NCBI GenBank assembly: GCA_045648425.1
Contig: JAZRNV010000089.1
Location: 17,691 to 81,690 of the forward strand
Source of the DNA: Acutalibacteraceae bacterium
GTDB taxonomy: Bacteria > Bacillota > Clostridia > Oscillospirales > Acutalibacteraceae
Direction: 5' to 3'
DNA: 64,000 nt
Shown: piece after piece, positions 39,315 to 64,000 of the stretch
How the letters are laid out: each line of letters starts with the position of its first letter
Position numbering within the stretch: position 1 is the stretch's first letter
Position numbers and translations under genes: made by a program
The notes under the pieces: model-generated
What the model was told of the DNA's origin: nothing
Database searches by the model: none
Seen by the model: only the letters and a program-made list of their open reading frames with translations

Positions 39315-40259
39315 TTAACCAACGATACCGGTACGCTCAACCGACTGAACAAAATAGCGCTGAAGAATGATATACATAATCAGCATAGGAAGCACAAACA
39401 ACAATGCGCCTGCCATAATCTTTGGTGTCAAGTTGAAGTAGTTGTTACCGGCTCCCAAGTCGCCACGCAGGTTGGACAACGCCTTAGCCAAGGTTCGTTT
39501 GCGTGAAATGAACTGGCTGGTGTAGAAGGTGTCATTCCAATACCACACGATGGAGAAGAGGAAAACAGTCAGGTAGGAACCCGATGCATTGGGAACCATA
39601 ATTCGATAGAAGGTCTTGAAAAATCCTGCGCCGTCAACCATTGCCGCCTCTTCGATTTCAACAGGAATGTTGCGGAAGAACTGGCGGAAAATGTAAACAT
39701 AAAGTCCGCTTCTGAGGCCGGTTGCGGTAAGTGCAGGCAGCCAGAACACAAGCCAGCTGTCTATGAGGTTTACGCTCCAGAACTCGGGCATACTCTTGCC
39801 GGCAAGCATCTCAATCAGAGGTGCAATTATCGGTATAGAGAACTCTTTGTACTGGAAGTACAGAGGAATGGTAATGGTTGCGCTGGGTACGATCAGGGTA
39901 AGCATTACCAATACAAACCACAGTCCGCTTGAACGGAATTTAAAGCGAGCAAATCCATAGCCAACCATTGAGCAAGAGATAAGCTGAAGCACGGTGCTGA
40001 CCAAGCTCATAACCAGAGTGGTTACGAATGCGTCGCCATATCGCATGGTTGTGAACGCTGTTTTAAACTGCTCAATGGTGAAGGCCTTAGGTATCCATAT
40101 AACTGAAGGGTCCATAACCTGGCTGTTAGGACGAACAGCCATAGATATCATATAAAGGATAGGATAAACGAGGATGTAAGAAAGGCCAATCAGCATTACA
40201 AATCTTACAAGCTTCCAAATCAGTGAACCAACTTCGGTAGCAATAATCTTTTTGTTCAT
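39315..40259 (-). CDS. carbohydrate ABC transporter permease (CUT1, MalG-like), pair B
   Basis: 314 aa with 6 TM helices. EAA loop EAAMVDGAGFFKTFYRIMVP. Confidence 0.85.
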   Translation of the reverse strand: MNKKIIATEVGSLIWKLVRFVMLIGLSYILVYPILYMISMAVRPNSQVMDPSVIWIPKAFTIEQFKTAFTTMRYGDAFVTTLVMSLVSTVLQLISCSMVGYGFARFKFRSSGLWFVLVMLTLIVPSATITIPLYFQYKEFSIPIIAPLIEMLAGKSMPEFWSVNLIDSWLVFWLPALTATGLRSGLYVYIFRQFFRNIPVEIEEAAMVDGAGFFKTFYRIMVPNASGSYLTVFLFSIVWYWNDTFYTSQFISRKRTLAKALSNLRGDLGAGNNYFNLTPKIMAGALLFVLPMLIMYIILQRYFVQSVERTGIVG

Positions 40260-40277
40260 TGTAACGTGACTCCTTTC

Positions 40278-41189
40278 TTACTTATTTGTCTGGTAGAACA
40301 CCAATCGGTTACCTACCAAGAACACAATGCCGACAATAACAAGCAGAACAATAAAGAACAACCATGCCATCAAGCTAGCCATTGAATAATTCAAGCTTTG
40401 GAAAGCGATAGAGTTGATATAAGACATAACCTCATTGTCTTTGCCTGTAATCGAGTCGATTATTGTGTAGATAACGTTAACCAAAATGATGGGTGATACG
40501 TTGGGGAATGTAACCTTCCAGAAAATTTCCCAACCGGTTGCACCCTCAATCTTGGCAGCTTCATAAAGCTGGGGTGATACGCCCTGCAACGCTGCAAGGA
40601 AGAGCAGTATTTGTACACCACATTTCCACAGCGTATCAAATATCTGGTTAACAATGGTGATGAAGCCCTCAATAAAGCTTTCGGGCAAATTCATTCCCTC
40701 AAGAATTTCGACCATACCTGCCGCCTGGAAAACGGTAGATGATGATTCACTTTCCATATTGCCGTAGAAGGTGTCACCCTTAATGATAGAGATAACAACA
40801 CCGGAGGTAACAACAACTGGCATAAAGAAGACTGCTCGAGCTATCAAACGGCCGCGGAACTCCTGATTAAGGATGATGGCCAAAAACAGCGAGAAAATTA
40901 CAACCACAGGTACGGTGTAAAGCATGCTGAGCAAGGTGTTACCAAGTTTTACCCAGAAGTCTGATTCGGCGCCAAACATATGCTCATAGTTGTCGAATCC
41001 TACAGGTTCAAGACTTATACCGCCGCCCTTTGCCGGCTGCATATTCTGAAAGGTATAATACAAAGATGTTGCAAGGGGTTGCAGATAGAAGCAACAGAAA
41101 CCGATTATGAAGGGAAGAACAAAGGCGAAACCGGCTCTGGCTCTGCGCTGTTGTTCGGTAAGAATTTTCTTACTTTTCTTAGCACCCAT
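40278..41189 (-). CDS. carbohydrate ABC transporter permease (CUT1, MalF/UgpA-like), pair B
   Basis: 303 aa. EAA loop EAAKIEGATGWEIFWKVTFP. Its ATG shares base 41189 with the upstream stop. Confidence 0.85.
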   Translation of the reverse strand: MGAKKSKKILTEQQRRARAGFAFVLPFIIGFCCFYLQPLATSLYYTFQNMQPAKGGGISLEPVGFDNYEHMFGAESDFWVKLGNTLLSMLYTVPVVVIFSLFLAIILNQEFRGRLIARAVFFMPVVVTSGVVISIIKGDTFYGNMESESSSTVFQAAGMVEILEGMNLPESFIEGFITIVNQIFDTLWKCGVQILLFLAALQGVSPQLYEAAKIEGATGWEIFWKVTFPNVSPIILVNVIYTIIDSITGKDNEVMSYINSIAFQSLNYSMASLMAWLFFIVLLVIVGIVFLVGNRLVFYQTNK

Positions 41190-43546
41190 TATTCAACCCC
41201 TCCTTCCGTAGTCTGCGATTGCACTGATGTTTTTTCAGCATATTCGGATGCAGTCATAACAAGATATCCGCCTGCTGAAACTGTTGCATCACCCAATGCG
41301 TAATCCTTGTCACCGTAGTTAACAAGCACTACTCTTTCGCCACCGTAAACGGTTGCACGAACATCAGTGGTGATTATGTCGTGATCGGTTATCTGCTTAT
41401 CGCAGTAGCCGTTAAGAACGCCTGCCAAAACCTTATAGTCTTTGGCGGCTACGTCTGCCCAAGTCTTGTACTGGCTGGTGTAGATCAAATTGTGACGGGT
41501 GTTAAGGAACACTGCACTTTCTGAATCGGTCAGTACATAGTAGGGTGCGGCACCGGTCTCAAGCTGACGGAGCAGCTGAATCTTGGTGTCGAAGGTAAGG
41601 TTATGAGCGGTCTCGGTATAGGTTATAAGACCGTGCAATGCCAACTGTGCAAAAGGTACATCGGTAAAGGTCATCTCATATCCGTTGCAATACATGGGCA
41701 AGCCTGCAACAACATCTGCGCTGACATAGCTGAATGCATTACCAACGTTAACCATCACCTTGCCGTCTTTGCCGAGGTTAGTCTTGATATTGGCAAGAGC
41801 ATCTCCCATCAAATCACTGGTCTGCTGAGCATCAGTGAAGCTGTCGTGAGAGTTGTTAAAGTCAGAATAGTTGTTTTCTGCAAGCGAACCGGCAGAAATG
41901 CCCTTAATAGCTTTAAGCTCATCATAATCAGCAAAGAATTTATCTACCTGAGTTTTGAAAAGCGAGGGCTTGCACAAATAATAGGTGTATGTGCTGGGCA
42001 TACCGGTGCTGCGCAGATAAATGGCCTGCTCAGAATGGTTATTAAGAATGTTGCGGATTGAGAATTTATTGGGCTTGCCCTTATACATCTTAACTACCTC
42101 AAGCTCGAGGTAGGTAGTGCCGCCCTGACTCTCAATATATTTATTGAGCTCTAACAGGTCATCCTTCTTGCCGAGCAAGGGTTCGTGCTTGGCATTGGAA
42201 ACTAAGCCGCCGTCAGCGCCGCCCTTTGTCCAACCGATATAACGCAGGTTGATGTTTTTAATATCTTTCTTATTAAGATATTCAACCATCGCTTTTGCCT
42301 GGCTGAAGGTGGTAGAGGTTTTTGTAACATCGGTTACAAAGCCCATAACCGATTCGGTCTTTTTGAAGGCACCCATTGTTTCAAGATAGAAGGGCAAATC
42401 TTCAGAAACCTCTGAGCCAACGCCCTGCTCAATAAGGTACTCGCGGTATGTCTGAGCCATTCCTACGTAATCGGCTTTTTCGCCATGGGTTGAGTAGAAA
42501 CGAACAGTTGCATTATCCAGATCGGTATGCTCAAGAGTTACCTGATCATAGTCCTTAATATTCCAGGCGTTTTTGGTGGTGAACACGTCGGTCTTGTTGT
42601 AAATAAACTCAACGTAAGCAGTGGTAAAGGGGAAGCTCTCACGGGCGCTTACCGCTTTAATCATTGCGCTTGCTTCACCGCGCTCGATTACACCCAGCCA
42701 TGCTCTGTCCCCTGCTTTAGTTCCTACCACAGGAAGAACGGTGCTCTCACTGCGTCCAAGCTTAAGGGTGGTGTTGAGCGCACTGTCACGGCCGTATACA
42801 TAGGCGCTGTAATACTTAACGCCGCCATCAAGTGCCGTAAAGCTGTTATCCATCAAAGCGCCGCTGCCGTCGGGAATAAGAACATAGCCATCTTCACCGT
42901 AAAGAGCACAACCGTAATAAGGCATAACAGAGATGCTGAGTATGCTGCTTTCGCTGTTTTTGTCAACCTTGATTTTGTTCATCTCAACGCTGACGTCAAA
43001 GTGGTTGTCCTTAAGGGTGTAGGTTAAGGGAAGAGTAAATCCTTTGCCTTCTTTGGCACCGGGGAACTCATAGGTAATACGAACACCGTTGTCGATTTTG
43101 TCGACCTTATAATTGCCTTCAACAACAGCAGTGGCAGAAAGACACTTTTGTGCTACCTTGCTCTTGTCTTGATAATTGATAATTGCCGACGACATAATTT
43201 CGGTGCGAAGCATTTCGTTTTCAATTGAAGTTGCCTTTGCAGGCACAGAATAGGTTACAGTGCCGGATTCAACATCCTTGACTGCAAAAACGATGTGCTT
43301 CTTTGCTTTTTCAAGCATATAAAGCTCGGTAGTTTTGTTGCCGGCTATCTTTTTGAATTCGTCGAGTCCCTCGTAAAGAGGCGCTACATCTGTCTTTATT
43401 GCACCGTCGCTGTCGCTGCCGATTGTTCCGGTATCAACAGGGGGAGTTTCTTCGTTGTCGGCAAAAACCGCAACGGAGCCCGATGCAATTACCATTGCAA
43501 GGATGGACAGTGCTGTAACGAACAAAAGTAATAATTTCTTTTTCAT
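41189..43546 (-). CDS. 785-aa secreted protein of unknown function (I recall DUF5696-type proteins in this context; unverified)
   Basis: Signal peptide MKKKLLLLFVTALSILAMVIASGSVAVFA. No motif I can assign. Segments such as GYVLIPDGSGALMD and NINLRYIGWTKGG hint at a glycan-processing fold. Confidence 0.4.
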   Translation of the reverse strand: MKKKLLLLFVTALSILAMVIASGSVAVFADNEETPPVDTGTIGSDSDGAIKTDVAPLYEGLDEFKKIAGNKTTELYMLEKAKKHIVFAVKDVESGTVTYSVPAKATSIENEMLRTEIMSSAIINYQDKSKVAQKCLSATAVVEGNYKVDKIDNGVRITYEFPGAKEGKGFTLPLTYTLKDNHFDVSVEMNKIKVDKNSESSILSISVMPYYGCALYGEDGYVLIPDGSGALMDNSFTALDGGVKYYSAYVYGRDSALNTTLKLGRSESTVLPVVGTKAGDRAWLGVIERGEASAMIKAVSARESFPFTTAYVEFIYNKTDVFTTKNAWNIKDYDQVTLEHTDLDNATVRFYSTHGEKADYVGMAQTYREYLIEQGVGSEVSEDLPFYLETMGAFKKTESVMGFVTDVTKTSTTFSQAKAMVEYLNKKDIKNINLRYIGWTKGGADGGLVSNAKHEPLLGKKDDLLELNKYIESQGGTTYLELEVVKMYKGKPNKFSIRNILNNHSEQAIYLRSTGMPSTYTYYLCKPSLFKTQVDKFFADYDELKAIKGISAGSLAENNYSDFNNSHDSFTDAQQTSDLMGDALANIKTNLGKDGKVMVNVGNAFSYVSADVVAGLPMYCNGYEMTFTDVPFAQLALHGLITYTETAHNLTFDTKIQLLRQLETGAAPYYVLTDSESAVFLNTRHNLIYTSQYKTWADVAAKDYKVLAGVLNGYCDKQITDHDIITTDVRATVYGGERVVLVNYGDKDYALGDATVSAGGYLVMTASEYAEKTSVQSQTTEGGVE

Positions 43547-43564: not shown

Positions 43565-44272
43565 TTAATAAGTAAATCTAAACACGAGTTCTTGATAAAT
43601 TGTAGTTGCAAAGTTGTAAATTTCCAAGAACAAGCTAAACATAAGAATCATCAAAAGCAACAGAACCAACACACCGAAAATGGTAAGAATCATTGAGAAA
43701 ATGCTCTTTCCGAAGGAGTACTGGTGCACTGTGGTGTTGGCTATAAATAGCAACAGCACCATCCAACCGAACACGATGGTTTCGGCGATGCCAATAAAGG
43801 CGCCTTCTTCGATTGTTGTTACCTTTGAGATAATTGCCAAGGGCACAATGGTCATTATCTGGGGCATAACTGAATAGCAGCTGCAAATCCAGATTTCTTT
43901 GAACCAACCCTCACCATCCATAAGGGTGCATATAGCCCAGTTGGATATGCTCCACAAAACGATGATGGCACCTGTGCTCATAAACAGGTTGAAAAGCTTA
44001 AGGTCTTCAACTCGGTTTTCGTTAAACTGGAAGCCGGTTTCCAAAAATGAAAACACTGCACTGAATGTCCACAGAATAAGAATGATAACCGACAGCAAAA
44101 CCGAGCCGCGCTTTTCATACTTGATTTCTGTGAAGGCCTGAACAGGATGGGTAAGCACTCTGAAAGGCCATATAATTTTTTGCCAATCCCAATTTTTGGG
44201 GTTCAGCTTTTGGGGGCTGAACTTGAAAGAAGCTTTTTTGGAATATTTGATTATATTTGCAATAGATCCCAT
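43565..44272 (-). CDS. Yip1-domain-like polytopic membrane protein
   Basis: 235 aa. A cytoplasmic N-terminus is followed by 5 hydrophobic helices. Strong RBS AAGGAGGGG. Confidence 0.55.
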   Translation of the reverse strand: MGSIANIIKYSKKASFKFSPQKLNPKNWDWQKIIWPFRVLTHPVQAFTEIKYEKRGSVLLSVIILILWTFSAVFSFLETGFQFNENRVEDLKLFNLFMSTGAIIVLWSISNWAICTLMDGEGWFKEIWICSCYSVMPQIMTIVPLAIISKVTTIEEGAFIGIAETIVFGWMVLLLFIANTTVHQYSFGKSIFSMILTIFGVLVLLLLMILMFSLFLEIYNFATTIYQELVFRFTY

Positions 44273-44286: not shown

Positions 44287-45930
44287 TTAACTAAATTTAA
44301 TGCGTTTTTTCTTGCGCTTAATGCCAAGACACTTCTGAATAAATCTGAAGATAAGCACAAAGACTACGCAAGCCACTACTACGGTAGGAACAAGCCACAT
44401 ATAGTTTTTACGCAAATATTCTTTGCGGTACTCTTGCAATGCAAGTGAATATGAGGTTCTGTCTTGACCTTGCTTGAGCCAGTAAAGTGACTCTTCATAC
44501 TTCTTTTGCTCGCGAAGAGATTTACCGATTGCTGCATATCCACGAGCAAAGTTTGCATCATACTTAAGAACGTTGCGCCAATATGGCTCGCCTTTCACAT
44601 AAAGTCCGTCGGTATAGAACTTGTTTGCCTCAAGCAACATGGACATATATTCGGTGGGACGGTATGTAACAATAGTACCGCGAGCTGCGTCCAGAACAAG
44701 ATAGCGGTCATTCAAGCGATCAATGGCGGTTGCAGAAGCAATGGTGCCTTCCGACGAGTTACCTGTTGCTTTAAAACCGAATGCGGTAAGGAGCATGCAG
44801 GATTGGTCGTAAAGGTAAATTCTGCTTCTTTCAACGTCCATACAAGCGATGATTCCGTTTTCATCTACCACAACGTCTTCAAGTCGTGTATCGGAAGTCA
44901 CGCGGTTACCGCCTGTAACATAGGAGCCGGCTTCTCGGTCACCAAAAACAACATCTACCAAAGCATTAACATCGGCGTTAAGGGTGTTGGTGCCGGATGC
45001 GTTAAGTTTTCTGACGCGAAGCTCTTTTTCAACGGTAGAGGTAGCTGTGGTTGTGTAGATAAAGCCCTCTTCATCTATATACATATTAGACATTTCGGTA
45101 GGAACTGCCTTTATACGGCCTTCGGTTGCTTTACGTGAGAAAATCTTTTTAATGGTTTGCTCAATAAGCAATCTCCAGGTAAGAACAACCTTGTTTGCAC
45201 CGTAGAAGGTGTCAAACTGTGCGCTGTCGTACTTGTAAACAATGATACCGTCCAGCACACCGTATGCCTGCAGGTAAAGGTAGTTGGAATCGTCAACTAC
45301 TACGCTGAGGGGCTGGAAGTCTTTGATGTTGGTTACAGAGCTTTCGGGACGAACATACTTACGAATAATATTGCCGTCCATATCAGCGCAAATGACATAT
45401 CCGTCTTTGCGCTCAGCTCCGTCTTTATCCTTTACGGTGATGTTGCAGCAAACGAACATCTCATCCTTGTCGGTGTCTTTGTTGTGACGAACAAACAGAC
45501 CCTGAGGTGAAGGGATAGGTTGCTTGGTGCCATCCTCTGCAGTGAAGGTGGTGTACTCGCGCAAGAACTTGTACTCAGTATCAAGCACGATAATTCGTCC
45601 ATATTCGGTGCTGTCAGAAGCATCCTTTTCGCCTTCGGCATCTAAGGTCTCAATATTTACACCTGAACTGTCGGTTATCCAAATTTCTTTGTTGTCAAAC
45701 ACGAACATATCTTGAGGAGTAGACAGGTTTTCAGCCAAGCCCATATCCTCATAATCTATTGTTCCGGCGGGCAAATAGCCAACGGGAGCAGCGGTGCTGA
45801 CTCCGTATGGGTCATAGTTGTATCCCTCATAAGGAGGTGATGACAATGCCGATACCGGAAGAACCATAACTGTTGCCATAATGGCAAGAACCATTATCAC
45901 GGCAACTGCATTAGCTGCAATTCTTCTCAT
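44287..45930 (-). CDS. extracytoplasmic beta-propeller-like (NHL/YVTN-type) protein with TPR-like segment and C-terminal TM anchor
   Basis: 547 aa. N-terminal signal/TM segment (AVAVIMVLAIMATVMVLPVSALS) and a repetitive beta-rich middle. The C-terminal YAAIGKSLREQKKYEESLYWLKQG is TPR-like. This is followed by TM LVPTVVVACVVFVLIF and a KRKKKR tail. Confidence 0.45.
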   Translation of the reverse strand: MRRIAANAVAVIMVLAIMATVMVLPVSALSSPPYEGYNYDPYGVSTAAPVGYLPAGTIDYEDMGLAENLSTPQDMFVFDNKEIWITDSSGVNIETLDAEGEKDASDSTEYGRIIVLDTEYKFLREYTTFTAEDGTKQPIPSPQGLFVRHNKDTDKDEMFVCCNITVKDKDGAERKDGYVICADMDGNIIRKYVRPESSVTNIKDFQPLSVVVDDSNYLYLQAYGVLDGIIVYKYDSAQFDTFYGANKVVLTWRLLIEQTIKKIFSRKATEGRIKAVPTEMSNMYIDEEGFIYTTTATSTVEKELRVRKLNASGTNTLNADVNALVDVVFGDREAGSYVTGGNRVTSDTRLEDVVVDENGIIACMDVERSRIYLYDQSCMLLTAFGFKATGNSSEGTIASATAIDRLNDRYLVLDAARGTIVTYRPTEYMSMLLEANKFYTDGLYVKGEPYWRNVLKYDANFARGYAAIGKSLREQKKYEESLYWLKQGQDRTSYSLALQEYRKEYLRKNYMWLVPTVVVACVVFVLIFRFIQKCLGIKRKKKRIKFS

Positions 45931-45984: not shown

Positions 45985-46899
45985 TTACTTCAGACCCGAT
46001 GTTGACATCGTCTCCATAATTGAGCTTTGGCTGAAGATAAACAATCCTATCGGAGGAAGCATCATAACCAATGCAACGGCTGCGGCAGCACCCTGACGGG
46101 CAACACCGCCGGCGGTAATTTGGCTGAGAGCAGTGGGCAGCATCTTCATCGGCTCGTCATAAATATATACCGAACCGGTTGCGTGCCACATGCTTTGGAA
46201 GGAGAATATTGCCAAGGTCAACCATGCAGGTTTTACGTTTGGCATTGCTATCTTCCAGAAAATGTACCACTCGCCTGCACCGTCAATTCGAGCAGCTTCA
46301 AGAACAGCGTCGGGAATGTTTGATTCCATAAACTGTCTCATAAGGAAAACGCCCATTGTGCCTGCAAGTGAAGGCAACAGCAATGACCAGTAGGTGTTGA
46401 TCATATTCAGATTGGCTATAATCAAATATTGCTGGATGCCCAAAACCTCGGCACGGAACATCATAGCCCAAACTACGATATTATAAAGGAAGGATTTGCC
46501 TTTAAAGCGGTGCTTTGCAAGGGGGAATGCTGTCAATGCGCCAATCAAAATGCCAAGCACTGTACCGCCAACAGCAATAAGCACGCTGTTAAAGAGATAT
46601 CGTGAGAAGGGCACCTGTGATGACGAAATGAGTCGCATCATGGTTGAAAAGTTGTCAAACGTGGGGTTAACAACATAAAAACGAGGGGGGAAGATGAACA
46701 ATTCGTTCAATGGCTTAAATGCACTGATTGCCGCATAGTAAAGGGGCAATACCATGAATGCACCAAAGAGGAAAAGGAAGAGGAACATAAAGAAGTTACC
46801 TGCACGAGAGCGGTTAACCTTTTTCTTGTTGCCGCCCTTTTGACGCAAGAACTTTTTGCTGTAGGTTGCGTCCGGGTTAAGTTGTTTGTTTTTTCTCAC
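45985..46899 (-). CDS. carbohydrate ABC transporter permease (MalG-like), pair A
   Basis: 304 aa. EAA loop EAARIDGAGEWYIFWKIAMP. GTG start preceded by AAGGAGGA. Confidence 0.85.
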   Translation of the reverse strand: MRKNKQLNPDATYSKKFLRQKGGNKKKVNRSRAGNFFMFLFLFLFGAFMVLPLYYAAISAFKPLNELFIFPPRFYVVNPTFDNFSTMMRLISSSQVPFSRYLFNSVLIAVGGTVLGILIGALTAFPLAKHRFKGKSFLYNIVVWAMMFRAEVLGIQQYLIIANLNMINTYWSLLLPSLAGTMGVFLMRQFMESNIPDAVLEAARIDGAGEWYIFWKIAMPNVKPAWLTLAIFSFQSMWHATGSVYIYDEPMKMLPTALSQITAGGVARQGAAAAVALVMMLPPIGLFIFSQSSIMETMSTSGLK

Positions 46900-50789: not shown

Positions 50790-50854
50790 TCGGCATTTTC
50801 CCTTCGTTTGAATTTTTGGCGGTAGGCGCCGCCTTTATGTCGGAGAGGCGAGCC

Positions 50855-50912
50855 CATCCAAACGCAGAAAGCTCCGAGGCCGGAGGGCTCCGGCGGTTTC
50901 TGCCTTTGGATG
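50855..50912 (-). promoter_or_regulatory. long GC-rich hairpin in the 5' leader of the giant-SBP operon
   Basis: CATCCAAA+GCAGAAA pairs with TTTCTGC+TTTGGATG (15 bp with one C-C mismatch). The stem encloses GCCGGA-GGGC-TCCGGC, and an alternative CTCCG/CGGAG pairing is possible. It sits between a TA-rich promoter-like stretch and the RBS. Confidence 0.55.
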
Positions 50913-50966
50913 ATTTTTCTTACTATTATATATATAGCAAGTCGCGCATCCGTTTTAAACACATTC

Positions 50967-53833: not shown

Positions 53834-53881
53834 AATGAAACCTCCTTGTGTATTTAAATATGCTAAACGTGAAACCACGAT

Positions 53882-55180: not shown

Positions 55181-55182
55181 TA

Positions 55183-56523
55183 TCAGGTTGCGCTTTCCAT
55201 TTCCAGCTCGCACTGTGATTTAAACATGGGACGGTAGGTTGCAAGCACCTCGCTGACGTTGCCCTTGCCCTTCGAAATAGCAGTCCAGAAATCCCACTGA
55301 CTTGACCACAAGGTGCCAACGCCCATAAAGAAAGCGTTTTCGGTAAAGTTGTCATAGTCTGCCATCATAGCATTTTGCTCTTCGTTGAAGATCGACAGGA
55401 ATTCGTCATCATACTTGCCCGCTACCATCTTGTCAAAGGTGCGGGTAGCAATTATGTAGTTGAGAGCGCCCTGAGGATTTTTGGAAGAACTTGAAATGGC
55501 ATTGCCGTTGATATCGCCTGGCATTGCGTTGCCTTTGTTATCAGCGCCGTAGGGGAAAGGAACAATATCCCACTCAAGGGTTATTTCTTCTCTACCGATG
55601 GGCTTGGATATGTTGGTCTTAAGTGCGGCATACATTCCGATTTTGCCTTTTGCGAAAGAGCCGGTTGAAGCTACGCACTTGTCAACGCTGGCAAGACGAT
55701 GAATGTTGGTGAGGGCGTTTTGAACATTAAGTGTATCGAAGCAGTCGTAAATCTTGCCCTTTTCATCCATTCTTACAAGCTGACCGCCGTTTGCAACAAC
55801 GAACCAGCTGAAGTCCCATCCTTCATAGCCGAAAACATCGATTATATCGTCACCGTCGCTGTCTCTGGTGAGCTCTTTGCAGCACTTTTCAAAGGTTGCG
55901 TAGTTCCAGGTGCCTTCGTTGTAATAATCGACGGGAGACTTAACGTTGTATTGCTTAAACAAGTTGGTGTTAACACAGCAATAAACGGCGCTTTTGAAGC
56001 TTACGCCGATGGCATAGTTCTCACCCTTGTAGGAATAGTTCTTTTCGCAAAGCTCAATATCATCATCAAAGGTGGGGTGGTCAAGACCGATAACGCCCTT
56101 TTCTTTGAGCTCTTTGACTGAGTAAATCATTCCGCGATTGGCGGCCTTGGGCCACAGTTTATAAAAAACTGTTGTTACATCGGGAGCATCATCGGCGGCA
56201 AAGTCGGTTATGTAGACATTTTCCCAACCTTCCCACACAATATCTTTCTTTTCGAGGGTTCCGTTGTAGACGTTTTTGAAGTATTCGTCTCTTTCTTTGA
56301 TATATTCGTCACCGACATAGGGATTCTCATAAATCTTAACTGTTCCGGAATCTGAGAGAGCTGCCAAAACTTCTTCACTGACGTTGGCAACGCCACCGGG
56401 AACAAGATCATTTGGTAAGTTGGTAGCATCATCGCTTTGGGAACTGCCTTTGCATCCGGTTGCAACGACTGCAAGAGAGCAAACAAGCAACACAACAACA
56501 AAAAGAGCAAAAATACGTTTCAC
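55183..56523 (-). CDS. ABC sugar-binding lipoprotein, tandem paralog 4
   Basis: GTG at 56523 (VKRIFALFVVVLLVCSLAVVATGC) is preceded by AGAAGGA. The ORF track's extension to 56625 lacks an RBS. Confidence 0.75.
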   Translation of the reverse strand: MKRIFALFVVVLLVCSLAVVATGCKGSSQSDDATNLPNDLVPGGVANVSEEVLAALSDSGTVKIYENPYVGDEYIKERDEYFKNVYNGTLEKKDIVWEGWENVYITDFAADDAPDVTTVFYKLWPKAANRGMIYSVKELKEKGVIGLDHPTFDDDIELCEKNYSYKGENYAIGVSFKSAVYCCVNTNLFKQYNVKSPVDYYNEGTWNYATFEKCCKELTRDSDGDDIIDVFGYEGWDFSWFVVANGGQLVRMDEKGKIYDCFDTLNVQNALTNIHRLASVDKCVASTGSFAKGKIGMYAALKTNISKPIGREEITLEWDIVPFPYGADNKGNAMPGDINGNAISSSSKNPQGALNYIIATRTFDKMVAGKYDDEFLSIFNEEQNAMMADYDNFTENAFFMGVGTLWSSQWDFWTAISKGKGNVSEVLATYRPMFKSQCELEMESAT

Positions 56524-56868
56524 TGTTCGTCCTTCTTTCTGTTTGGAATTGAAAGTTGATATATATATAATATATATCCTCGCTTGGAAAATAGCCAATA
56601 AGCATATTAGACCACAATTAACCAATCCTATTTTAACACATATTTTTTAAATATAAACAAGGTTTACAAACATTTAACATTTTTCGTCACATTGCATATC
56701 ATTTCGCCCTTATTTATGGACAAAAAGCACAACAAAATTGGTAATATTTGTGACAACTATTCCCTGTTGCCTTTATTTTGCAATTATCGGTATCAATTTC
56801 ACCATAAAAATTGGTAAAAATTAACACGCTGTTATATCTATATGAGCAACAGTTATAAAACTTGTCCT

Positions 56869-56905
56869 AAAAAAAACACCCCGAAGCAAATATCGCTTCG
56901 GGGTG
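56869..56905 (-). terminator. rho-independent terminator after Asp-box paralog 1
   Basis: CACCCCGAAGC pairs with GCTTCGGGGTG, followed by TTTTTTT on the minus strand. Confidence 0.85.
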
Positions 56906-56917: not shown

Positions 56918-59008
56918 TTATTTTTGGGGCAGGGCCATTTTATATACACCGCGGCAGGCACCCGAAGCGAACAGCTCTCGGGTAAGGGGATTAATATCAA
57001 AATGGCTGATATCTCTTGCTGCTTGAGCACCACGGCTGCCGTCACCCACATTGCGGGCGCAGTTAAGCCAGGTCTTGCCGCCATCGGTAGTGCGGAGCAC
57101 GCCCGTTGCACTTGCATATACACCTCTGCCATTGCAAACGAAGATGCAATTTGTGTTTTCGGGGTCAACGGCAATATCGCGAATATCCATCGTGTCCCCT
57201 GTTAGGTCTCTTGCTTCGGCAAAGCTGTAAATAAGGGTTGCCTCGCCATCCTTAATTGAGACGGCGTAAACCTCATTCTTGTGAGCAAGAACCAGCAGAC
57301 ATTTGCCGTCAAAATCATATCGCATTTGTCTTACGCCGTTAGGTACGGAACCAACCTCGACCCAAGTAATGCCGTAGTCATCGGTACGTACAATCTTGCC
57401 GTCGCCGTTTACGCCAAAAAGCGCGCCTTCTTCACTGTGGCAGTATACGCCGTTGCATCCTTCCATTTCAGTCCAGCTAACACCCTTATCGACAGAGCGG
57501 TACTGTCCTGCAAAAACAATGTCATTTTTGCCGTATGCACCGTAGATGTTGGGGATTTTAACTACCAAATCGGTAATTTCAACAGTTTTGCCGCCATCGG
57601 TAGTGTGAGCTATTATTCTGTCACCGTGCCAGCTGCTGGTTTTAAGAGCTATTATATGATTTTCGTCAACAACATAGCCACCGTATGAATAACCGCCCCA
57701 AGGATTGCCCGACCAGTTAATATAGGTCCAGGTTTTGCCTGCATCGAGAGAGAAGCCGCCGTTATAATCCTGATTACCCAGAGCCATAAAGTTAGGATTG
57801 TTAACGTTATGGCTGATAGATGTGGTGCAAGAGCCGTTATAGCCATTGCCGCCCCAAACGAATTTTTCGGCAGCATTTTCGGAGCGCATAATCATATCGC
57901 CACCGGTTGAAATGCACAAATTCTCATCAGCACAGTTCCATGCAAAGACGGTCTGGCGCACGTTGTAAGGAATGAAGGAGTTTGACGCGTCAATCTCGCT
58001 CTCCTTCCAGGTTTGGCCGCCGTCGTGAGAATAGTATATAACGCTGGTATAACCAAGGCCTGCCAGAAGGTGGTCATCCTGCACGACCATATTGTTGGGG
58101 TTTACAGGGCTGACTCTGACTCTTGCAGGGTAGATGGTTGGGAAGCCCGCAGTATCAACCTTTTTGAAGTTGTCACCGTTATCTTCAGAAATGAACATAC
58201 CCTCAACCGCGCTGACATAAACATTATCTTTGCGTGTAGTGATAACATCCATACCGTGTGCTGTTGCTTCAAGAACCTTTTCAAAGGTTTGGCCGCCGTC
58301 CTTTGAGCGATAAACGCCCAGCTTGTGAGCGATGTAAACCCAGCCCTTTGAAGGACTTACATAAATTTCACCGCCGCCGGTATATTCTTCAGTGTTGACA
58401 ACGCTCCATGTTTCGCCGCCGTCGGTTGACTTAAGCAAAGCGGGATCTCTGTTTTCACCGCGGTTGTAATTTCTGGTATCACGTGACCAGTAAACGGTTG
58501 TGCAATAGCCCAGATTATCGTCAAAGCTGGTTTCGTCAAAGGCAATCTGATGACGGGTGTCGCGGTATGCACACAGCTTTGCATAATCGTTTTGGGTTTT
58601 GTTGTAGGTGAACATACCCTCCCAGGTATCACCCTTATCCTTAGAAAGATATATACCGTTTACGCCGTAATGGATTGAGTTTGCACCGATAAGCAAAACG
58701 CGATTGGCATTTTTGGGGTCGATAGACATACCGCATCCGCCTGATGAATAAAGGCCGATGGTGGTAAGCTCCCAATTTTTGCCGCCGTCAGTAGTGCGGT
58801 ATACACCGCCAACATCGGTGCCCATAAAGGCAAGGTCGGGATCGGTTGCTGAGGTGGTGATATAGATAGGCCACTGACAGCCCTCACCGCCTGTGTAGCC
58901 CTGAGCCAGAAGCTCTGCAGTTACCAGAGGCACTGCCTGCCAGGGTGTATCAACAGTTGGGTGCTTTTCGTTTGATGTAAAAGCACCTTCAAGATTAAAT
59001 CCGTACAT
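56918..59008 (-). CDS. Asp-box (BNR) repeat double beta-propeller protein, GH74-like, no signal peptide (paralog 1)
   Basis: 696 aa with about 11 SxDxGxTW-type boxes (TTDGGKNW, SKDKGDTW, STDGGETW, SHDGGQTW, SLDAGKTW...). GTDVGGVYR and QDYNGG motifs occur, one in each half. The N-terminus is not hydrophobic. Confidence 0.6.
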   Translation of the reverse strand: MYGFNLEGAFTSNEKHPTVDTPWQAVPLVTAELLAQGYTGGEGCQWPIYITTSATDPDLAFMGTDVGGVYRTTDGGKNWELTTIGLYSSGGCGMSIDPKNANRVLLIGANSIHYGVNGIYLSKDKGDTWEGMFTYNKTQNDYAKLCAYRDTRHQIAFDETSFDDNLGYCTTVYWSRDTRNYNRGENRDPALLKSTDGGETWSVVNTEEYTGGGEIYVSPSKGWVYIAHKLGVYRSKDGGQTFEKVLEATAHGMDVITTRKDNVYVSAVEGMFISEDNGDNFKKVDTAGFPTIYPARVRVSPVNPNNMVVQDDHLLAGLGYTSVIYYSHDGGQTWKESEIDASNSFIPYNVRQTVFAWNCADENLCISTGGDMIMRSENAAEKFVWGGNGYNGSCTTSISHNVNNPNFMALGNQDYNGGFSLDAGKTWTYINWSGNPWGGYSYGGYVVDENHIIALKTSSWHGDRIIAHTTDGGKTVEITDLVVKIPNIYGAYGKNDIVFAGQYRSVDKGVSWTEMEGCNGVYCHSEEGALFGVNGDGKIVRTDDYGITWVEVGSVPNGVRQMRYDFDGKCLLVLAHKNEVYAVSIKDGEATLIYSFAEARDLTGDTMDIRDIAVDPENTNCIFVCNGRGVYASATGVLRTTDGGKTWLNCARNVGDGSRGAQAARDISHFDINPLTRELFASGACRGVYKMALPQK

Positions 59009-59184: not shown

Positions 59185-59216
59185 GCCACCCTTTTGTCAA
59201 CAATAAAAAGGGTGGC
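59185..59216 (-). terminator. stem-loop terminator after Asp-box paralog 2
   Basis: GCCACCCTTTT pairs with AAAAGGGTGGC around a 10-nt loop, with a U-rich but interrupted tail. Confidence 0.55.
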
Positions 59217-59232: not shown

Positions 59233-61320
59233 CTATGCTTTTTTTGGAACGGGAGGATGGGCTATCTTCCACACTCCGCGGCATCCGCCTGAGGTGAAAA
59301 GCTCACGTGTATTGGGGTTAACGCGTGCTGCACCTGTCATCACTCCGCCGTTAAGTCCTTTGCGTCCGTCGCCCACCTTGCGATTAAGGCAGGTGAAGCT
59401 TTCGCCGTCATCAAGAGAGCGCATTACGCTGTCAATGGTGTATTCGTGGCAGGTGCAGGTAACATAGACTATCTGCGGGCACACCGGGTCAACGCACACC
59501 GCCCTTGCCTCAACCGAGCCGTACTCGCTTCGCTTAAAGCCGGGATGACTGACATTCTTTCCGCGGTAGTAGTGACCGTTCGCCAATACAACATGAATGG
59601 TTTTATCCTGATGATTGTAGGCGATATCCCAAATTTTGTGGGTAAAAGCATAAACGGTGCGCCAGGTCAGTCCTTTATCATCGGATATAACAAGATTTTG
59701 CCCGTCAGCGCCGAAAAGCTGCGCTGTATTGGGGTCAAAGGTATAGACACCCATACAGTTTTCCATCTGAGTAAAGGTGTAGCCGCGGTCAGCGGTGCGC
59801 AGGCCGCCCAAAAAAGCAACATTCGGGTCACCGGGCACTCCGCAAGCCACCTGGTTGCCCCAAACCTCAACGCCTGCATCCTCTACGGTTTTGCCTCCGT
59901 CGTGGGTAACGCGTATCACTCCGCCCCCTGCCCAGCTTTGAGCTACACCTGCTGCTCCGTTTTGCTCGTCAAACATATAAGAGCAATAGGTATGACCGCC
60001 CCAGGGCTTGCCTGACCAGTTTACATAATTCCACGTTTTTCCGTTGTCAAAGGTTATTCCTCCATTAAAATCCTGGCTGGATAAGGCCATTATGTTGGGA
60101 TAGTTGGCGTTCCAATTATATTTACCGCCAACGCAAATTCCGTTAAAGCCCGTAAGTGAGTAGACGAAGTGCTCACCCCCGTCAACAGACCGCCAGGAGC
60201 TTGCACCGAACACCTCGCCTTTGGTGTGGGTAAACCAAAAGAGTGCGCCGTCCCAGCTGTTGGCAGGCACCCAGAGCCCTTTAGGGTCGCGGCTGCCCTT
60301 GCCCCAGGTTTTGCCTCCGTCACGGGTGAAAAAGACGGTATGAGCCCAGCAATGCTCAGGGTCAGCAGAGTGGTTGTCAAGAAGTATCATATTGTTGGTG
60401 TCAACGGGACTTACTCGCAGCCGCTCAGGGCAAAAGGTGGGAAAATTCTCCCCCTTTACACATCGCCAGGTGTCACCTGCGTTCTCTGAAATATATATGC
60501 CATTGCGAGTTGAAACATAGATATTGTCGGGCCGCGTGCGTATTAAATCCATTGACAGGGGCTCAACATCAAGCACCTTTTCAAAGTGCTCTCCCCTATC
60601 CTTTGACCGATAAACACCCGGTTCTTTCATATCGTGATTTACCGAAACAAACACCCAACCGTTTTTGGCACTCACTCCCAGGTCACCGCCGCCAAAGCCC
60701 AGGGTGTCGGGAATTTCGTGCCAGTGCTCTCCCCCGTCATCCGAGCGGTAGATGGCAGGGTAGCTTGTTTCAACATTGCCGCGATAGGTCTTGCCTGCGT
60801 AGGAATGCTTGTAAGAATATTCGCGAGACCAATATGCCACTGCACTGCCGCCGATTTTTTCATCGTAGGTGGTAGTGTCAAAAGCAGTCTGATTGCGGCG
60901 GTCGTTATGGATGCCAACCTGGCCGTGACCCGTATCCTCAACAGTGTAAACGTAGCGCCAGGTTTCTCCCTTATCGGTAGACAGGTGGATTCCGTTGCCA
61001 TAGTGACGCCAAGTGTTTGCACCGATAAACAAAACGCGGTTAATATTATTGGCATCAATGGCAAAGCCCACCGCACCGCAGGACACCATACCAAGCGTGC
61101 ACATATGCCAATGTCTGCCTCCGTCAAGGGTGCGGTAAAGGCCTGCGCAATCAGTGCCGAAAAAACCCAACTGACTATCAACGGGGTCAAAAATCAGATA
61201 AGGCGTTGACTGACAGCTTTCGCCCCCTTCAAAGCCCATATCAAGAATTTCTTGACTTACCATGGGCACGTGCTGCCACACATCGGTATCAAAGAGTAAT
61301 TTTTCGCTCATTACCATCAT
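59233..61320 (-). CDS. Asp-box repeat double beta-propeller protein, GH74-like, no signal peptide (paralog 2)
   Basis: 695 aa and collinear with paralog 1 (GTDCAGLYRTLDGGRHW, SQDFNGGITFDNGKTW, C-terminal GGCRGVWKIA). Confidence 0.6.
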   Translation of the reverse strand: MMVMSEKLLFDTDVWQHVPMVSQEILDMGFEGGESCQSTPYLIFDPVDSQLGFFGTDCAGLYRTLDGGRHWHMCTLGMVSCGAVGFAIDANNINRVLFIGANTWRHYGNGIHLSTDKGETWRYVYTVEDTGHGQVGIHNDRRNQTAFDTTTYDEKIGGSAVAYWSREYSYKHSYAGKTYRGNVETSYPAIYRSDDGGEHWHEIPDTLGFGGGDLGVSAKNGWVFVSVNHDMKEPGVYRSKDRGEHFEKVLDVEPLSMDLIRTRPDNIYVSTRNGIYISENAGDTWRCVKGENFPTFCPERLRVSPVDTNNMILLDNHSADPEHCWAHTVFFTRDGGKTWGKGSRDPKGLWVPANSWDGALFWFTHTKGEVFGASSWRSVDGGEHFVYSLTGFNGICVGGKYNWNANYPNIMALSSQDFNGGITFDNGKTWNYVNWSGKPWGGHTYCSYMFDEQNGAAGVAQSWAGGGVIRVTHDGGKTVEDAGVEVWGNQVACGVPGDPNVAFLGGLRTADRGYTFTQMENCMGVYTFDPNTAQLFGADGQNLVISDDKGLTWRTVYAFTHKIWDIAYNHQDKTIHVVLANGHYYRGKNVSHPGFKRSEYGSVEARAVCVDPVCPQIVYVTCTCHEYTIDSVMRSLDDGESFTCLNRKVGDGRKGLNGGVMTGAARVNPNTRELFTSGGCRGVWKIAHPPVPKKA

Positions 61321-61379: not shown

Positions 61380-63569
61380 TTACGACTTGTTTTTAGTGTC
61401 GGAGGGAGCCGCCTTTATCTTCCACATTCCGCGGCAACCGCTGACAACAAATACCTCTCGAGTCAGCTGATTAAACTCGATACCACTTGCGTGACGTCCG
61501 CCGTCAGGGCCCTCTCTGCCGTCACCGTATTCACGGTTAAGACAGGTCCAGGTTTTGCCACCGTCAAGCGAACGGAAAACCGCACTGTAGTTAAAGGCGT
61601 CTGCCTGCCATCCCCTTGAAAGATAAAGAATGTTGCCGTTTTCGGGGTCGGTCACCACTCCTGTAGCACGATTCAGCTCACCGTTAACCTGAGACAGACG
61701 CTTGTCGGTGCCCAGCACGCCCTTGTGCAATCCGGCATTTGAGGTAACAAAAACAGTCTGTGTTTTTGCATCGTAGGCGATGTCAGTTACCTCATATTCA
61801 CCCACAATGGCCTTAACCCAGGTAGCGCCGTTATCGTCTGAATATACCACGTTGTAGCCGTTGCTGCCGATGAGTCGACCTGTTGACTTATCACCGGTAA
61901 ACACTCCCGTGCAGCCCTCCATAACCGACCAATTTTTGCCTCGGTCGGTAGTGCGGTATTCTCCAAAAAAGGCAATGTCATCATTGCCAAAGGCGCTGTG
62001 ACCTACCTTGGAGCCCTTTACCTCAAGACGTGTGCGAACAACGTTTTTGCCGCCGTCATAAGAGCAAGCCAGATAACGGGTAGCAGTCCATCCGTCGGCA
62101 TAAGAGGCCACCAAAGTTTTTTCATCAAGGCAATAAGAGCCGTATGTGAAGCCGCCCCAACCATTGCCACTCCAGTTTACATAATTCCAAGTGTAGCCGG
62201 AGTCGGTAGAGTATCCGCCGTTAAAGTCTTGACTGCCGATTGCCATAAGAGCGTTGTTGTTGGTGTTGACGCTGATTTTACCGCTGCCCACGGCAATTCC
62301 GGTAAAGCCGGTGCGTGAATAGTCAAAGGTTTTGCCCCCATCCACCGAAAGATAGGGGCCGTTAGTCATAATAACATTGGCCTTGGTGGGATGCCAGGTG
62401 CAAATTGCCTTCCAGGAGTTTTTGGGCATAATATCCCCAACCGAGTTGTCACGGCTGCTCTCGCCCCAAGTGACACCGCCATCATTGGAATATAGAAGCT
62501 TATACTTAAAATGCTCGTCACTTATTACCACGTTAACAGCGATGTTCTTTTCATTGGCAGGGCTTACGGACAGGGTCAGCATCTCTTCAACCGCACCCAG
62601 TCCGTGACTGCTTATTTTTTTCCAGCTTTTACCGCCGTCAGCGCTTTCGTATATATCGCTGAGGTCGCACATCCATACCTTGGAGGCCTTGTTTTGATGG
62701 GAATAGACGCATCTGACATTGCCATCAAAGGTTTTTTCCCAGCTTTTACCGCCGTCACTTGAAATAAAGATGCCCTTATCACTGCCGGCAATAACATTAC
62801 CCGTCTTGTTATCAACGGTGATTTCGCCGCCTGCTATATCTTCTGTGCCTGCAAGCTCTTTCCACGTTTTGCCGCCATCCTCACTTTTGTAAACAGCAGG
62901 ATGATTATACTCACTTGCTTTGTCACTTTTCTTATGATCCTCACGAGACCAGTACACAACGGCACTGCCCTTTATTTTTTCACTGTAGCTGCTTTTATCA
63001 AAGGCAAGTTGACGGCGATAGTCATTTTGAATGCCTATGCATCCCTCAAAATCGGTTTTGGCTTTAAAGACATATTGCCACAGCTCGCCGCAGTTTTCAG
63101 AAAGGTAAATGCCGTTGGCAACGTGGTACCCCGAGTTGCCGCCCACAGCAATTACACGGTTTTTATTATTGGGGTCAATAAGTATGCTGTTGGCACCGCA
63201 GGCCTCAAAGCCGAAGGTGCAAGGAGTCCATGTTTTTCCGCTGTCAGTGCTTTTGTAAATGGCGGCAACGTCTGTGCCAAAAAACATAGTGGTGCCGTCT
63301 ATGGGATCATAAACGATGGAAGGCATGGCTTGACATCCCTCGCCCCCTGCGAAGCCAAGGTCTCGCAGTTGCTTTGAGATAAAAGGCACTGCCTGCCACA
63401 CATCGGTATCTAAAAGGGTGCCCTTCTCAGCTGCAACAGGATTATCAGCAGCTGATGATGAGGGCGCTTTTCCGCTTTGAGAGGCAGAATCACCGCCACA
63501 ACCCACAAATGAAAAAAGCACACCCAAGCAAAGTATCAAAGATAAAATCTTGACATTATTGTTTTTCAT
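61380..63569 (-). CDS. Asp-box repeat double beta-propeller lipoprotein, GH74-like, surface-exposed (paralog 3)
   Basis: 729 aa. MKNNNVKILSLILCLGVLFSFVGC lipobox plus a Ser/Ala-rich linker, then the same architecture (GTDVAAIYKSTDSGKTW, SQDFNGGYSTDSGYTW, SGCRGMWKIK). Confidence 0.6.
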   Translation of the reverse strand: MKNNNVKILSLILCLGVLFSFVGCGGDSASQSGKAPSSSAADNPVAAEKGTLLDTDVWQAVPFISKQLRDLGFAGGEGCQAMPSIVYDPIDGTTMFFGTDVAAIYKSTDSGKTWTPCTFGFEACGANSILIDPNNKNRVIAVGGNSGYHVANGIYLSENCGELWQYVFKAKTDFEGCIGIQNDYRRQLAFDKSSYSEKIKGSAVVYWSREDHKKSDKASEYNHPAVYKSEDGGKTWKELAGTEDIAGGEITVDNKTGNVIAGSDKGIFISSDGGKSWEKTFDGNVRCVYSHQNKASKVWMCDLSDIYESADGGKSWKKISSHGLGAVEEMLTLSVSPANEKNIAVNVVISDEHFKYKLLYSNDGGVTWGESSRDNSVGDIMPKNSWKAICTWHPTKANVIMTNGPYLSVDGGKTFDYSRTGFTGIAVGSGKISVNTNNNALMAIGSQDFNGGYSTDSGYTWNYVNWSGNGWGGFTYGSYCLDEKTLVASYADGWTATRYLACSYDGGKNVVRTRLEVKGSKVGHSAFGNDDIAFFGEYRTTDRGKNWSVMEGCTGVFTGDKSTGRLIGSNGYNVVYSDDNGATWVKAIVGEYEVTDIAYDAKTQTVFVTSNAGLHKGVLGTDKRLSQVNGELNRATGVVTDPENGNILYLSRGWQADAFNYSAVFRSLDGGKTWTCLNREYGDGREGPDGGRHASGIEFNQLTREVFVVSGCRGMWKIKAAPSDTKNKS

Positions 63570-63585: not shown

Positions 63586-63630
63586 AAAAACAGCAATGGT
63601 TGAGTTTATAATAAAACAACCATTGCTGTT
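63586..63630 (-). terminator. terminator-like hairpin between Asp-box paralogs 4 and 3
   Basis: CAGCAATGGTTG pairs with CAACCATTGCTG, then TTTTT on the minus strand. It ends only about 20 nt before the ATG of paralog 3 and directly abuts its RBS AAAGGAG. Confidence 0.55.
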
Positions 63631-63694
63631 GGGTAAATAGATTAAACGATAATGAATTTGTATATTTTGATATCGCTATTTGTTTATTTCAGTA

Positions 63695-64000
63695 TCATTT
63701 TTCGAACTTTTGACCTTTTGATGCATCACAGGCCTTCATCTTCCATATACCTCGACAGGCGGCCGTAACTATGATTTCTCGGGTTGATTGGATAAAGCTG
63801 ATTGAGGTAGCGTTGCGTCCGCCGTCGGGACAGTTGTCACGACCGTCACCTACTGTGCGGCAAAGGTTGGTCCAGGTTTTACCGCCATCAAGTGAACGGC
63901 AGACCGAAGCAACGTTGTAGTTGGTGTAGGTACTGTAGGAAACATAGATAATATTGGGGTTTTCGGGGTCAACACAAACGCCGCCTGCCGAAACACCGTA
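63695..64000 (-). CDS. Asp-box repeat protein, C-terminal fragment (paralog 4; gene continues past the right edge)
   Basis: Own reverse-strand translation ends ...ACRGIWKMKACDASKGQKFEK with TGA at 63697..63695. It carries the conserved C-terminal CRG(V/I/M)(Y/W)K(I/M) motif and a DGGKTW box upstream. It is absent from the ORF track because no start lies in the window. Confidence 0.6.
   Translation of the reverse strand, partial: YGVSAGGVCVDPENPNIIYVSYSTYTNYNVASVCRSLDGGKTWTNLCRTVGDGRDNCPDGGRNATSISFIQSTREIIVTAACRGIWKMKACDASKGQKFEK

Follow-up and report, generated by a model that had tools for sequence, protein, structure and literature searches.

How is glycan uptake organised in a locus that encodes five binding proteins and four permeases, and that holds neither an ATPase nor a regulator? 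This question is raised by positions 39315-64000 of a 64,000-nucleotide stretch of DNA from an Acutalibacteraceae bacterium (assembly GCA_045648425.1, contig JAZRNV010000089.1, positions 17,691 to 81,690), which we analyzed as a whole and refer to as the window. The original prediction, made from the sequence alone, was that the region is a CUT1-type glycan-uptake locus with multiple solute-binding proteins (SBPs) and two permease pairs. Pfam matches and BLASTP pairing support this, and overall the observation was essentially correct and its interpretation partly right. We found that the core of the locus is a widespread conserved cassette, not a one-off. On balance, we lean somewhat towards the locus being a glycan import system built on that cassette and equipped with candidate GH129-like and GH74-like enzymes (GH, glycoside hydrolase), with the steps being individually less certain than the whole. 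New relative to the prediction are the widespread, undescribed cassette, the GH129-like candidate enzyme, the lineage-specific arrays and a conserved leader.

Open reading frame (ORF) listing and translation placed every long ORF from 39315 to the right edge of the window on the minus strand, as had been claimed, and gave 16 genes rather than the 17 counted earlier: 15 are complete (39315-63569) and one is truncated by the window edge (63695-64000). Eight of these genes had been proposed to form one long operon, and the same eight were found as a single syntenic unit in relatives. They are as follows:

39315..40259, minus strand: permease B2, MalG/UgpE-like (BPD_transp_1, 9e-14; EAA loop IEEAAMVDGAG)
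40278..41189, minus strand: permease B1, MalF/UgpA-like (BPD_transp_1, 1e-8; EAA loop YEAAKIEGATG)
41189..43546, minus strand: secreted DUF5696 protein of 785 residues, candidate glycosidase (PF18952, 1e-139)
43565..44272, minus strand: Yip1-family polytopic membrane protein (PF04893, 4e-13, residues 37-207)
44287..45930, minus strand: NHL-propeller/TPR ectodomain protein of 547 residues, bearing a signal or anchor at its N-terminus and a transmembrane helix at its C-terminus
45985..46899, minus strand: permease A2, MalG/UgpE-like (BPD_transp_1, 1.7e-8; EAA loop LEAARIDGAG)
46918..47817, minus strand: permease A1, MalF/UgpA-like (BPD_transp_1, 7e-12)
47814..50789, minus strand: giant SBP of 991 residues (SBP_bac_1, 2e-22; weak CBM_35, 6e-5)

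To survey this unit, a DUF5696 profile was run against one genome per GTDB species, which gave at least 579 confirmed loci, and ORFs were called in the best 80 of these and searched with the window proteins. The order giant SBP, MalF-like, MalG-like, NHL/TPR, Yip1, DUF5696, MalF-like, MalG-like was near-constant in the 80 loci where the contig was long enough, the exceptions being a short variant and a few split or missed ORFs. A small SBP was encoded directly before or after the cassette genes, and permease B2 was kept as the last gene. Carriers include Oscillospirales, Lachnospiraceae, Christensenellales, Paenibacillus, Cohnella and Gracilibacillus. Contigs of DUF5696 homologues from close relatives, from Paenibacillus sp. 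BC26 and from Gracilibacillus sp. D59 likewise carried the same gene string. The nearest DUF5696 matches among those listed came from metagenome-assembled genomes of Acutalibacteraceae (72% identity), and the family comprises 4,288 clusters at 50% identity (E <= 1e-30).

In roughly one third to one half of the 80 loci the NHL/TPR and Yip1 genes were fused, encoding proteins of ~655-811 residues, and the fusion was confirmed by Pfam in locus L006 (NHL + SGL + Yip1). The short variant is without the giant SBP and permease pair A and retains an SBP, NHL-Yip1, DUF5696 and pair B. It was found in L012, L022, L046, L062 and L086, and probably in L037, where a 192-residue giant-SBP-like fragment remains. 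The minimal core is therefore NHL/TPR-Yip1 plus DUF5696 plus one permease pair with an SBP. Loci of the short variant were also observed to have a longer DUF5696 protein (925-990 residues) and a longer NHL-Yip1 fusion (707-792 residues).

Full-text searches of the literature returned no paper that names DUF5696 or describes such a cassette, and nothing relevant on Yip1 with ATP-binding cassette (ABC) transporters, SBPs or GHs, on GH74 in Oscillospiraceae, on GH129 of unknown function, or on Paenibacillus SBPs fused to carbohydrate-binding modules (CBMs). A match to a characterized utilization locus, which the prediction had named beforehand as counting against it, was not found in that literature either.

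The transport components fit a CUT1 importer. By BLASTP the four BPD_transp_1 permeases form two MalF-like/MalG-like pairs, with A1 corresponding to B1 (MalF/UgpA-like; 27% identical) and A2 to B2 (MalG/UgpE-like), and an EAA loop could be read in the sequences of all four. Heterodimer pairs with EAA coupling loops are accompanied by SBPs of the expected kind: four of the five match SBP_bac_1/SBP_bac_8, and the fifth, SBP1, is 42% identical to SBP3 and SBP4. Pfam and BLASTP paralogy thereby bear out the earlier count of five binding proteins and four permeases in two pairs. The nearest PDB neighbours of the SBPs are sugar SBPs.

A MalK/MsmK-type ATPase was not found in the locus, in the 64-kb window or in any cassette copy of the 80 loci. 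The ABC ATPases that the window does encode, a PnrA-type system (4374-5948), ZnuC (34195-34905) and two exporter-type half-transporters (28540-32212), were considered as possible partners of the glycan locus and rejected, as all belong to other transporter classes. Nor was a sugar regulator for the locus found anywhere in the window, where the only regulator close by is a Fur family protein beside znuABC. The claim that the locus has no ABC ATPase and no regulator therefore holds for the locus and for the window as a whole. Supply of the ATPase in trans, by an MsmK/MsmX-type protein, is known for the CUT1 family, so its absence does not speak against CUT1 membership. An ATPase of this type would be consistent with the EAA loops in four of four permeases and with the ATPase-free cassettes of the 80 loci. 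With its SBP_bac_1 proteins, its EAA-loop MalF/MalG-like pairs and its ATPase-free operon, the locus resembles the CUT1 (MalEFGK2-type) importers of Firmicutes that share MsmK/MsmX. Unlike those systems, its operon holds two permease pairs, one of them accompanied by a 991-residue non-lipoprotein SBP with CBM35-like modules, and three further conserved proteins, NHL/TPR, Yip1 and DUF5696, are encoded between the two pairs.

The giant SBP is unusual in its architecture. Approximately 560 N-terminal residues with CBM35/CBM6-like modules precede a CUT1 SBP domain, whose nearest PDB structure is the sophoro-oligosaccharide SBP Lin1841 (5ysb, 2e-13). Residues 311-372 match a CBM35 structure (2w47, 3e-4), and nine of ten homologues gave sub-threshold matches to CBM35, CBM6 or Golvesin_C at two N-terminal positions (CBM35 in seven of the ten). 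The protein has a Sec-type signal and no lipobox, and a lipobox is likewise missing in 51 of 58 homologues. The DUF5696 protein is also without a lipobox in 62 of 79 homologues, and the small SBPs of the cassette are mostly lipoproteins.

Between these components lie the NHL/TPR and Yip1 proteins. The former had no significant Pfam match in the window, with NHL being faint here and significant in homologues, which match NHL, SGL, Phytase-like and TPR models. A crude hydropathy scan placed transmembrane segments at residues 1 and 508 of this protein, the C-terminal one being followed by a basic tail. The same type of scan found six hydrophobic segments in the Yip1 protein, which besides its Yip1 domain is in keeping with the about five transmembrane helices of that family. 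Taken with the gene fusions and the synteny, this topology suggests that NHL/TPR-Yip1 could act as a membrane scaffold for the extracellular parts that are not lipidated. The Yip1 protein YknW of Bacillus supports an ABC transporter, the MacAB-type exporter YknXYZ, which has an ATPase of its own. In the locus, as in the B. subtilis YknWXYZ system, the gene for a Yip1-family membrane protein lies with those of an ABC transporter that the protein presumably assists. The locus differs in that the partner is an SBP-dependent importer and in that its Yip1 protein is linked or fused to an NHL/TPR ectodomain.

The 785-residue secreted protein, which had been left anonymous, belongs to DUF5696, which Pfam lists as a family of its own (PF18952). 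Its AlphaFold2 model, based on 80 sequences (predicted local distance difference test, pLDDT, 90.6; predicted template modelling score, pTM, 0.89), has an N-terminal beta-sandwich, an alternating beta/alpha region forming a (beta/alpha)8 barrel, and a C-terminal beta-sandwich. This is the three-domain architecture of GH129 and GH101. Foldseek searches of the PDB with the model returned GH129 first, followed by GH101 endo-alpha-N-acetylgalactosaminidases and then by GH36 and GH31. The best matches were ZgGH129 (5opq/8rzk, E = 3e-30) and NagBb (5wzn, TM-score 0.73), with GH129 TM-scores ranging from 0.68 to 0.73. A single-sequence search of the PDB found nothing, and the family profile matched the GH129 chains (ZgGH129, 1.6e-12; NagBb, 1.7e-10) in an alignment that spans only the N-domain and approximately the first third of the barrel. 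The original prediction had held the propellers to be the only GH-like proteins present. This is wrong, because DUF5696 matches GH129 by profile, and GH129 and then GH101 by fold, and the locus consequently has a second candidate glycosidase.

The conserved acidic residues of DUF5696 are D226, D254, D562 and E663. D226 sits in the hallmark PDGSGA motif of the N-terminal domain, which is the most conserved motif of the family and is missing in ZgGH129. D562 is at least 90% conserved, sits where barrel strand 4 is predicted to end, and by offset lies within a few positions of the residue altered in the ZgGH129 D486N complex, assuming that the chain index equals native numbering. Going by this offset, D562 may correspond to the GH129 nucleophile position. 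The three-domain fold is common to DUF5696 and to GH129 (the alpha-N-acetylgalactosaminidase NagBb and the 3,6-anhydro-D-galactosidase ZgGH129) and GH101. In contrast to these families, DUF5696 is always inside an ABC-transporter cassette and has PDGSGA as its hallmark; identity to them is ~12%, and the catalytic half is not alignable by sequence. We therefore regard DUF5696 as a distinct GH129-related family whose members are probably glycosidases, although this is unproven.

Genes flanking the cassette in other species bear on its function. Upstream neighbours include AraC-type regulators (11 of 59), histidine kinase/response regulator pairs and LacI/GntR regulators, with GH35 and GH78 occurring once each. 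Downstream neighbours include GH32 (6 of 67), GH43, GH38, GH95, GH106, GH53 and GH26. These carbohydrate-related flanks support a role in glycan use, and their heterogeneity argues against one universal substrate. In a Paenibacillus clade (L027, L053, L075) a GH38 alpha-mannosidase gene directly follows the cassette; in other clades GH32, GH95, GH106 or large proteins without a Pfam domain (L038, L064, L081) are found beside it. Our leading guess for the substrate is a dietary beta-glycan bearing side chains, of plant or other origin.

The strongest alternative, although we regard it as rather improbable, is that the cassette works as a general-purpose importer of oligosaccharides with high capacity, in which DUF5696 and NHL/TPR-Yip1 are non-catalytic, serving as a lid, dock or assembly factor of a double translocator, with the substrate set by the variable GHs and the SBP paralogs. 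The cassette is indeed constant while the flanking GH families are highly variable, only one barrel Asp of DUF5696 is well conserved, its most conserved motif lies in the N-terminal domain and is not common to GH129, and YknW provides a precedent for a Yip1 protein aiding an ABC transporter. However, a fold predicted with high confidence as that of GH129/GH101 is kept over all three DUF5696 domains, a near-invariant Asp occurs where the nucleophile of a GH129-type barrel is expected, and the adjacent GH genes may belong to neighbouring loci in carbohydrate-rich genomes.

In the window the cassette is joined by arrays of small SBPs and of double propellers:

51017..52414, minus strand: lipoprotein SBP paralog 4 (SBP_bac_1, 1e-12; lipobox AVGC; 77% identity to SBP3)
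52445..53878, likely start 53833, minus strand: lipoprotein SBP paralog 3 (SBP_bac_1, 4e-13; signal MKKLFSLLLVV...ATGC)
53882..55213, likely start 55180, minus strand: lipoprotein SBP paralog 2 (SBP_bac_1, 2.5e-8; lipobox LAGC)
55183..56625, likely GTG start 56523 with a ribosome-binding site, minus strand: lipoprotein SBP paralog 1 (lipobox ATGC)
56918..59008, minus strand: GH74-like double propeller paralog 1, without a signal peptide (BNR and Sortilin-Vps10 matches)
59233..61320, minus strand: GH74-like double propeller paralog 2, without a signal peptide (BNR/Sortilin-Vps10)
61380..63569, minus strand: GH74-like double propeller paralog 3, lipoprotein (lipobox FVGC; BNR/Sortilin-Vps10)
63695..64000, minus strand: propeller paralog 4, C-terminal 101 residues, cut by the window edge (56% identity to paralog 3)

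Pairwise BLASTP identities are 31-77% among the four small SBPs and 35-56% among the propellers. The same arrangement of propellers, SBPs and cassette recurs in L009 and L090, with relatives at 57-77% identity. As it is missing from other cassette loci, the arrangement is a lineage-specific addition, and the SBP and propeller arrays are additions of Acutalibacteraceae-like gut bacteria. In the syntenic relative L004 (GCA_017407645.1), seven tandem propeller genes are preceded by a major facilitator superfamily (MFS) gene and followed by SBP genes. Window paralogs 4, 3, 2 and 1 correspond to the last four of these seven, with paralog 4 being orthologous to a 722-residue lipoprotein of L004. By analogy with L004, we would expect three more propeller genes and then an MFS gene to the right of position 64000. 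L091 (GCA_965349565.1) has a tandem run of six or more GH74-like propellers, after which come a 485-residue protein without a Pfam match and then unrelated hydrogenase genes. Because that array adjoins unrelated genes, propeller arrays occur also apart from the DUF5696 cassette.

The GH74 likeness noted originally is supported by both profile and fold (TM-score ~0.65). A single-sequence search of the PDB (phmmer) with a propeller found no GH74, only Ycf48, and a 75-sequence profile placed GH74 structures first, led by Xgh74A (2cn2, 4e-36). The AlphaFold2 model of paralog 1 (pLDDT 93.4) has the predicted double-propeller fold of GH74, and its top 25 Foldseek matches are all GH74 (TM-score 0.61-0.68, identity 14-17%). 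The catalytic Asp pair of GH74 is D70/D480 in Xgh74A. The invariant D65 of the propeller motif GTDVGG aligns with D70, and the chain of the D70A mutant shows Ala at that place. For the second catalytic Asp the candidate is the invariant D414 (SQDYNGG), and an alignment of the C-terminal half by hidden Markov model did not place it. The family has more than 5,000 matches, including members with dockerins, CBM6, discoidin domains or tails of the type IX secretion system, combinations that are typical of carbohydrate-active enzymes.

With regard to location, crude classing of the N-termini of 119 propeller relatives gave 71 that are lipoprotein-like and 31 that are signal-less. In the window, the signal-less copies are paralogs 1 and 2. 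The L004 ortholog of paralog 1 (L004:14293-16834) has an extra lipoprotein N-terminus of 122 residues. In the window (56918-59232) a hairpin and promoter replace this extension, and the signal-less protein begins at the same Met. Like the GH74 xyloglucanases, such as C. thermocellum Xgh74A, the locus propellers are predicted to consist of two tandem seven-bladed Asp-box propellers of ~700 residues. They differ from GH74 in their low identity, in their occurrence as tandem arrays of 4-7 paralogs, and in the signal peptide missing from a quarter of relatives and two window copies. From their sequences, the propellers thus appear only remotely GH74-like and probably partly cytoplasmic.

This bears on the second alternative, a xyloglucan utilization locus, with the propellers acting as xyloglucanases and xyloglucan oligosaccharides being taken up by the SBPs and permeases. 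An analog exists in Ruminiclostridium cellulolyticum, which uses an extracellular GH74, an ABC importer and cytosolic exo-glycosidases. That GH74 structures rank best by profile and fold, that the first catalytic Asp is conserved, and that the relatives are apparently largely from gut and rumen metagenomes are in its favour. We nonetheless judge it unlikely, as the earlier hint at xyloglucan has nothing behind it beyond a remote likeness to GH74 (~15% identity, with no single-sequence match), and the window encodes no enzyme of the families that usually accompany GH74 (GH31 alpha-xylosidase, GH2/GH35/GH42 beta-galactosidase, GH95 and GH3). In addition, two propeller copies have no signal peptide, while the GH74 enzymes known to us are secreted, and the divergence among seven paralogs points to more than one specificity. 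In the least probable alternative, the system would not acquire nutrients but would turn over or remodel a surface glycan or exopolysaccharide of the cell itself: the cassette is indeed carried by bacteria as different in habitat as soil Paenibacillus and gut Clostridia, contains membrane-embedded accessory proteins and in some loci is flanked by envelope genes (LytR_cpsA_psr, polysaccharide deacetylase), but its CUT1 SBP-dependent permeases are importers, sugar regulators of the AraC, two-component and LacI types are its commonest neighbours upstream, its downstream neighbours are mostly exo-glycosidases of dietary glycans, and the giant SBP bears CBM modules.

The reading of the locus as a glycan importer leaves the question of its control. 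In the lineage of the window no regulator gene adjoins the cassette, and the upstream genes in L090 are unrelated. Comparison of four upstream regions for a shared operator gave only an A/T-rich run and one 10-mer, compatible with chance. Two conserved elements lie in front of the giant-SBP gene:

50790..50915, minus strand: conserved structured 5' leader abutting the start codon of the giant-SBP gene (conservation and predicted fold)
50967..50994, minus strand: terminator-like hairpin 3' of the SBP block (stem kept in L001 and L002)

The 126-nucleotide leader is 96-97% identical to those of L001 and L009, in comparison to 77-79% for the flanking coding DNA, and its last ~45 nucleotides are identical in L002 also. 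Its predicted fold is a 23-bp hairpin and a second hairpin (minimum free energy -50 kcal/mol, z = -3). The five related loci in which a covariance model matched all have the match just before the giant-SBP gene and nowhere else. They include the more distant L090, which retains the sequence of the outer stem but differs in the apical part. Rfam gave no match in the window, the leader included. Compensatory pairs were not seen in the leader, and because of this its structure is not proven. The leader may be a cis-regulatory element that stands in for the missing regulator. In the neighbouring hairpin at 50967-50994, compensatory changes preserve the stem, which reads CCACGGGGAT in the window, as against CCACGAGAGG for L001 and CCACGGGAAG for L002.

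We propose the following mechanism. Surface-anchored propellers and DUF5696 would cut an extracellular polymer that is held at the membrane by the CBM-bearing giant SBP. The paralogous lipoprotein SBPs would collect different oligosaccharide products and pass them to the two permease pairs, beside which an NHL/TPR-Yip1 scaffold would hold DUF5696 and the giant SBP, neither of them lipidated. ATP would be hydrolysed by a shared MsmK/MsmX-type ATPase whose gene lies elsewhere, the signal-less propellers would complete degradation in the cytoplasm, and the cassette operon would be controlled via the structured leader before the giant-SBP gene and not by a local regulator. This mechanism is consistent with all of our results and unproven at each functional step.

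Several observations weigh against the mechanism and the reading behind it. The profile of the remaining, catalytic half of the DUF5696 barrel had no GH129 match, and no conserved carboxylate was found at the position expected for the acid/base, where N603 is conserved. Mis-registration of the Asp-box repeats prevented the second GH74 catalytic Asp from being located on the propellers. The lipoprotein N-terminus of paralog 1 may have been lost from the window copy only recently, which makes a cytoplasmic role for this protein uncertain. The families of flanking GHs vary so widely by species that either the specificity of DUF5696 varies or DUF5696 does not define the substrate. Finally, a trans-acting ATPase and control by the leader are both inferences, and the scaffold role of NHL/TPR-Yip1 is derived solely from gene fusion, synteny and topology.

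A broader hypothesis, which we offer tentatively and hold to be less probable than its contrary, is that NHL/TPR-Yip1, DUF5696 and a permease pair with an SBP, usually with the giant SBP and a second pair, make up an undescribed Gram-positive surface machine that couples polysaccharide capture, cleavage by a new GH129-related family and ABC import. Such a machine would be a Firmicute counterpart of the Bacteroidetes Sus system in hundreds to thousands of species, and in this lineage would be combined with regulation by a new cis-acting leader RNA and with a new, partly cytoplasmic GH74-related enzyme family. Gram-positive bacteria of gut and soil are major degraders of fibre, and to our knowledge little is known of how they capture glycans at their surface beyond cellulosomes and simple SBP/permease operons. 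The cassette, found in at least 579 GTDB species, joins a large family resembling GH129, a Yip1/NHL membrane module and two translocators, and assigning its substrate and architecture would annotate thousands of genes. DUF5696, the divergent GH74-like propellers or both would then probably become new glycoside hydrolase families. The model of coupled degradation and import in Firmicutes is testable, and the conserved leader offers a direct route to the inducing signal.

The division of the locus into blocks by hairpins or terminators, which had also been predicted, was borne out, and besides the hairpin 3' of the SBP block these elements are:

39274..39306, minus strand: strong intrinsic terminator closing the cassette operon (ACGACCTGCAG-TTTAT-CTGCAGGTCGT, then T7)
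56877..56905, minus strand: strong intrinsic terminator 3' of propeller paralog 1 (13-bp stem, then T8)
about 59172-59215 (hairpin 59185..59215), minus strand: hairpin 3' of paralog 2 and, overlapping it, the near-consensus promoter TTGACA-17-TATTAT of paralog 1
63589..63630, minus strand: T-tailed hairpin between paralogs 4 and 3 (AACAGCAATGGTTG...CAACCATTGCTGTT, then TTTT)

Beyond the left boundary comes proC, which has a promoter-like site of its own, and then proB, proA, a Fur-family gene and znuABC. As proC, proB and proA come next, we regard this boundary as real. None of the locus components reached the cut-off of an NCBIfam family.

Elsewhere in the window, two ORFs (10574-11356, 260 residues, and 15381-16055, 224 residues) had no Pfam match at E <= 1e-5. 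The regions 11495-14712 and 17069-19069 encode an AMP-binding/PP-binding protein followed by two acyltransferases, with an alpha/beta hydrolase and a GT2 glycosyltransferase nearby, and may represent a lipid or glycolipid modification cluster unrelated to the glycan locus.

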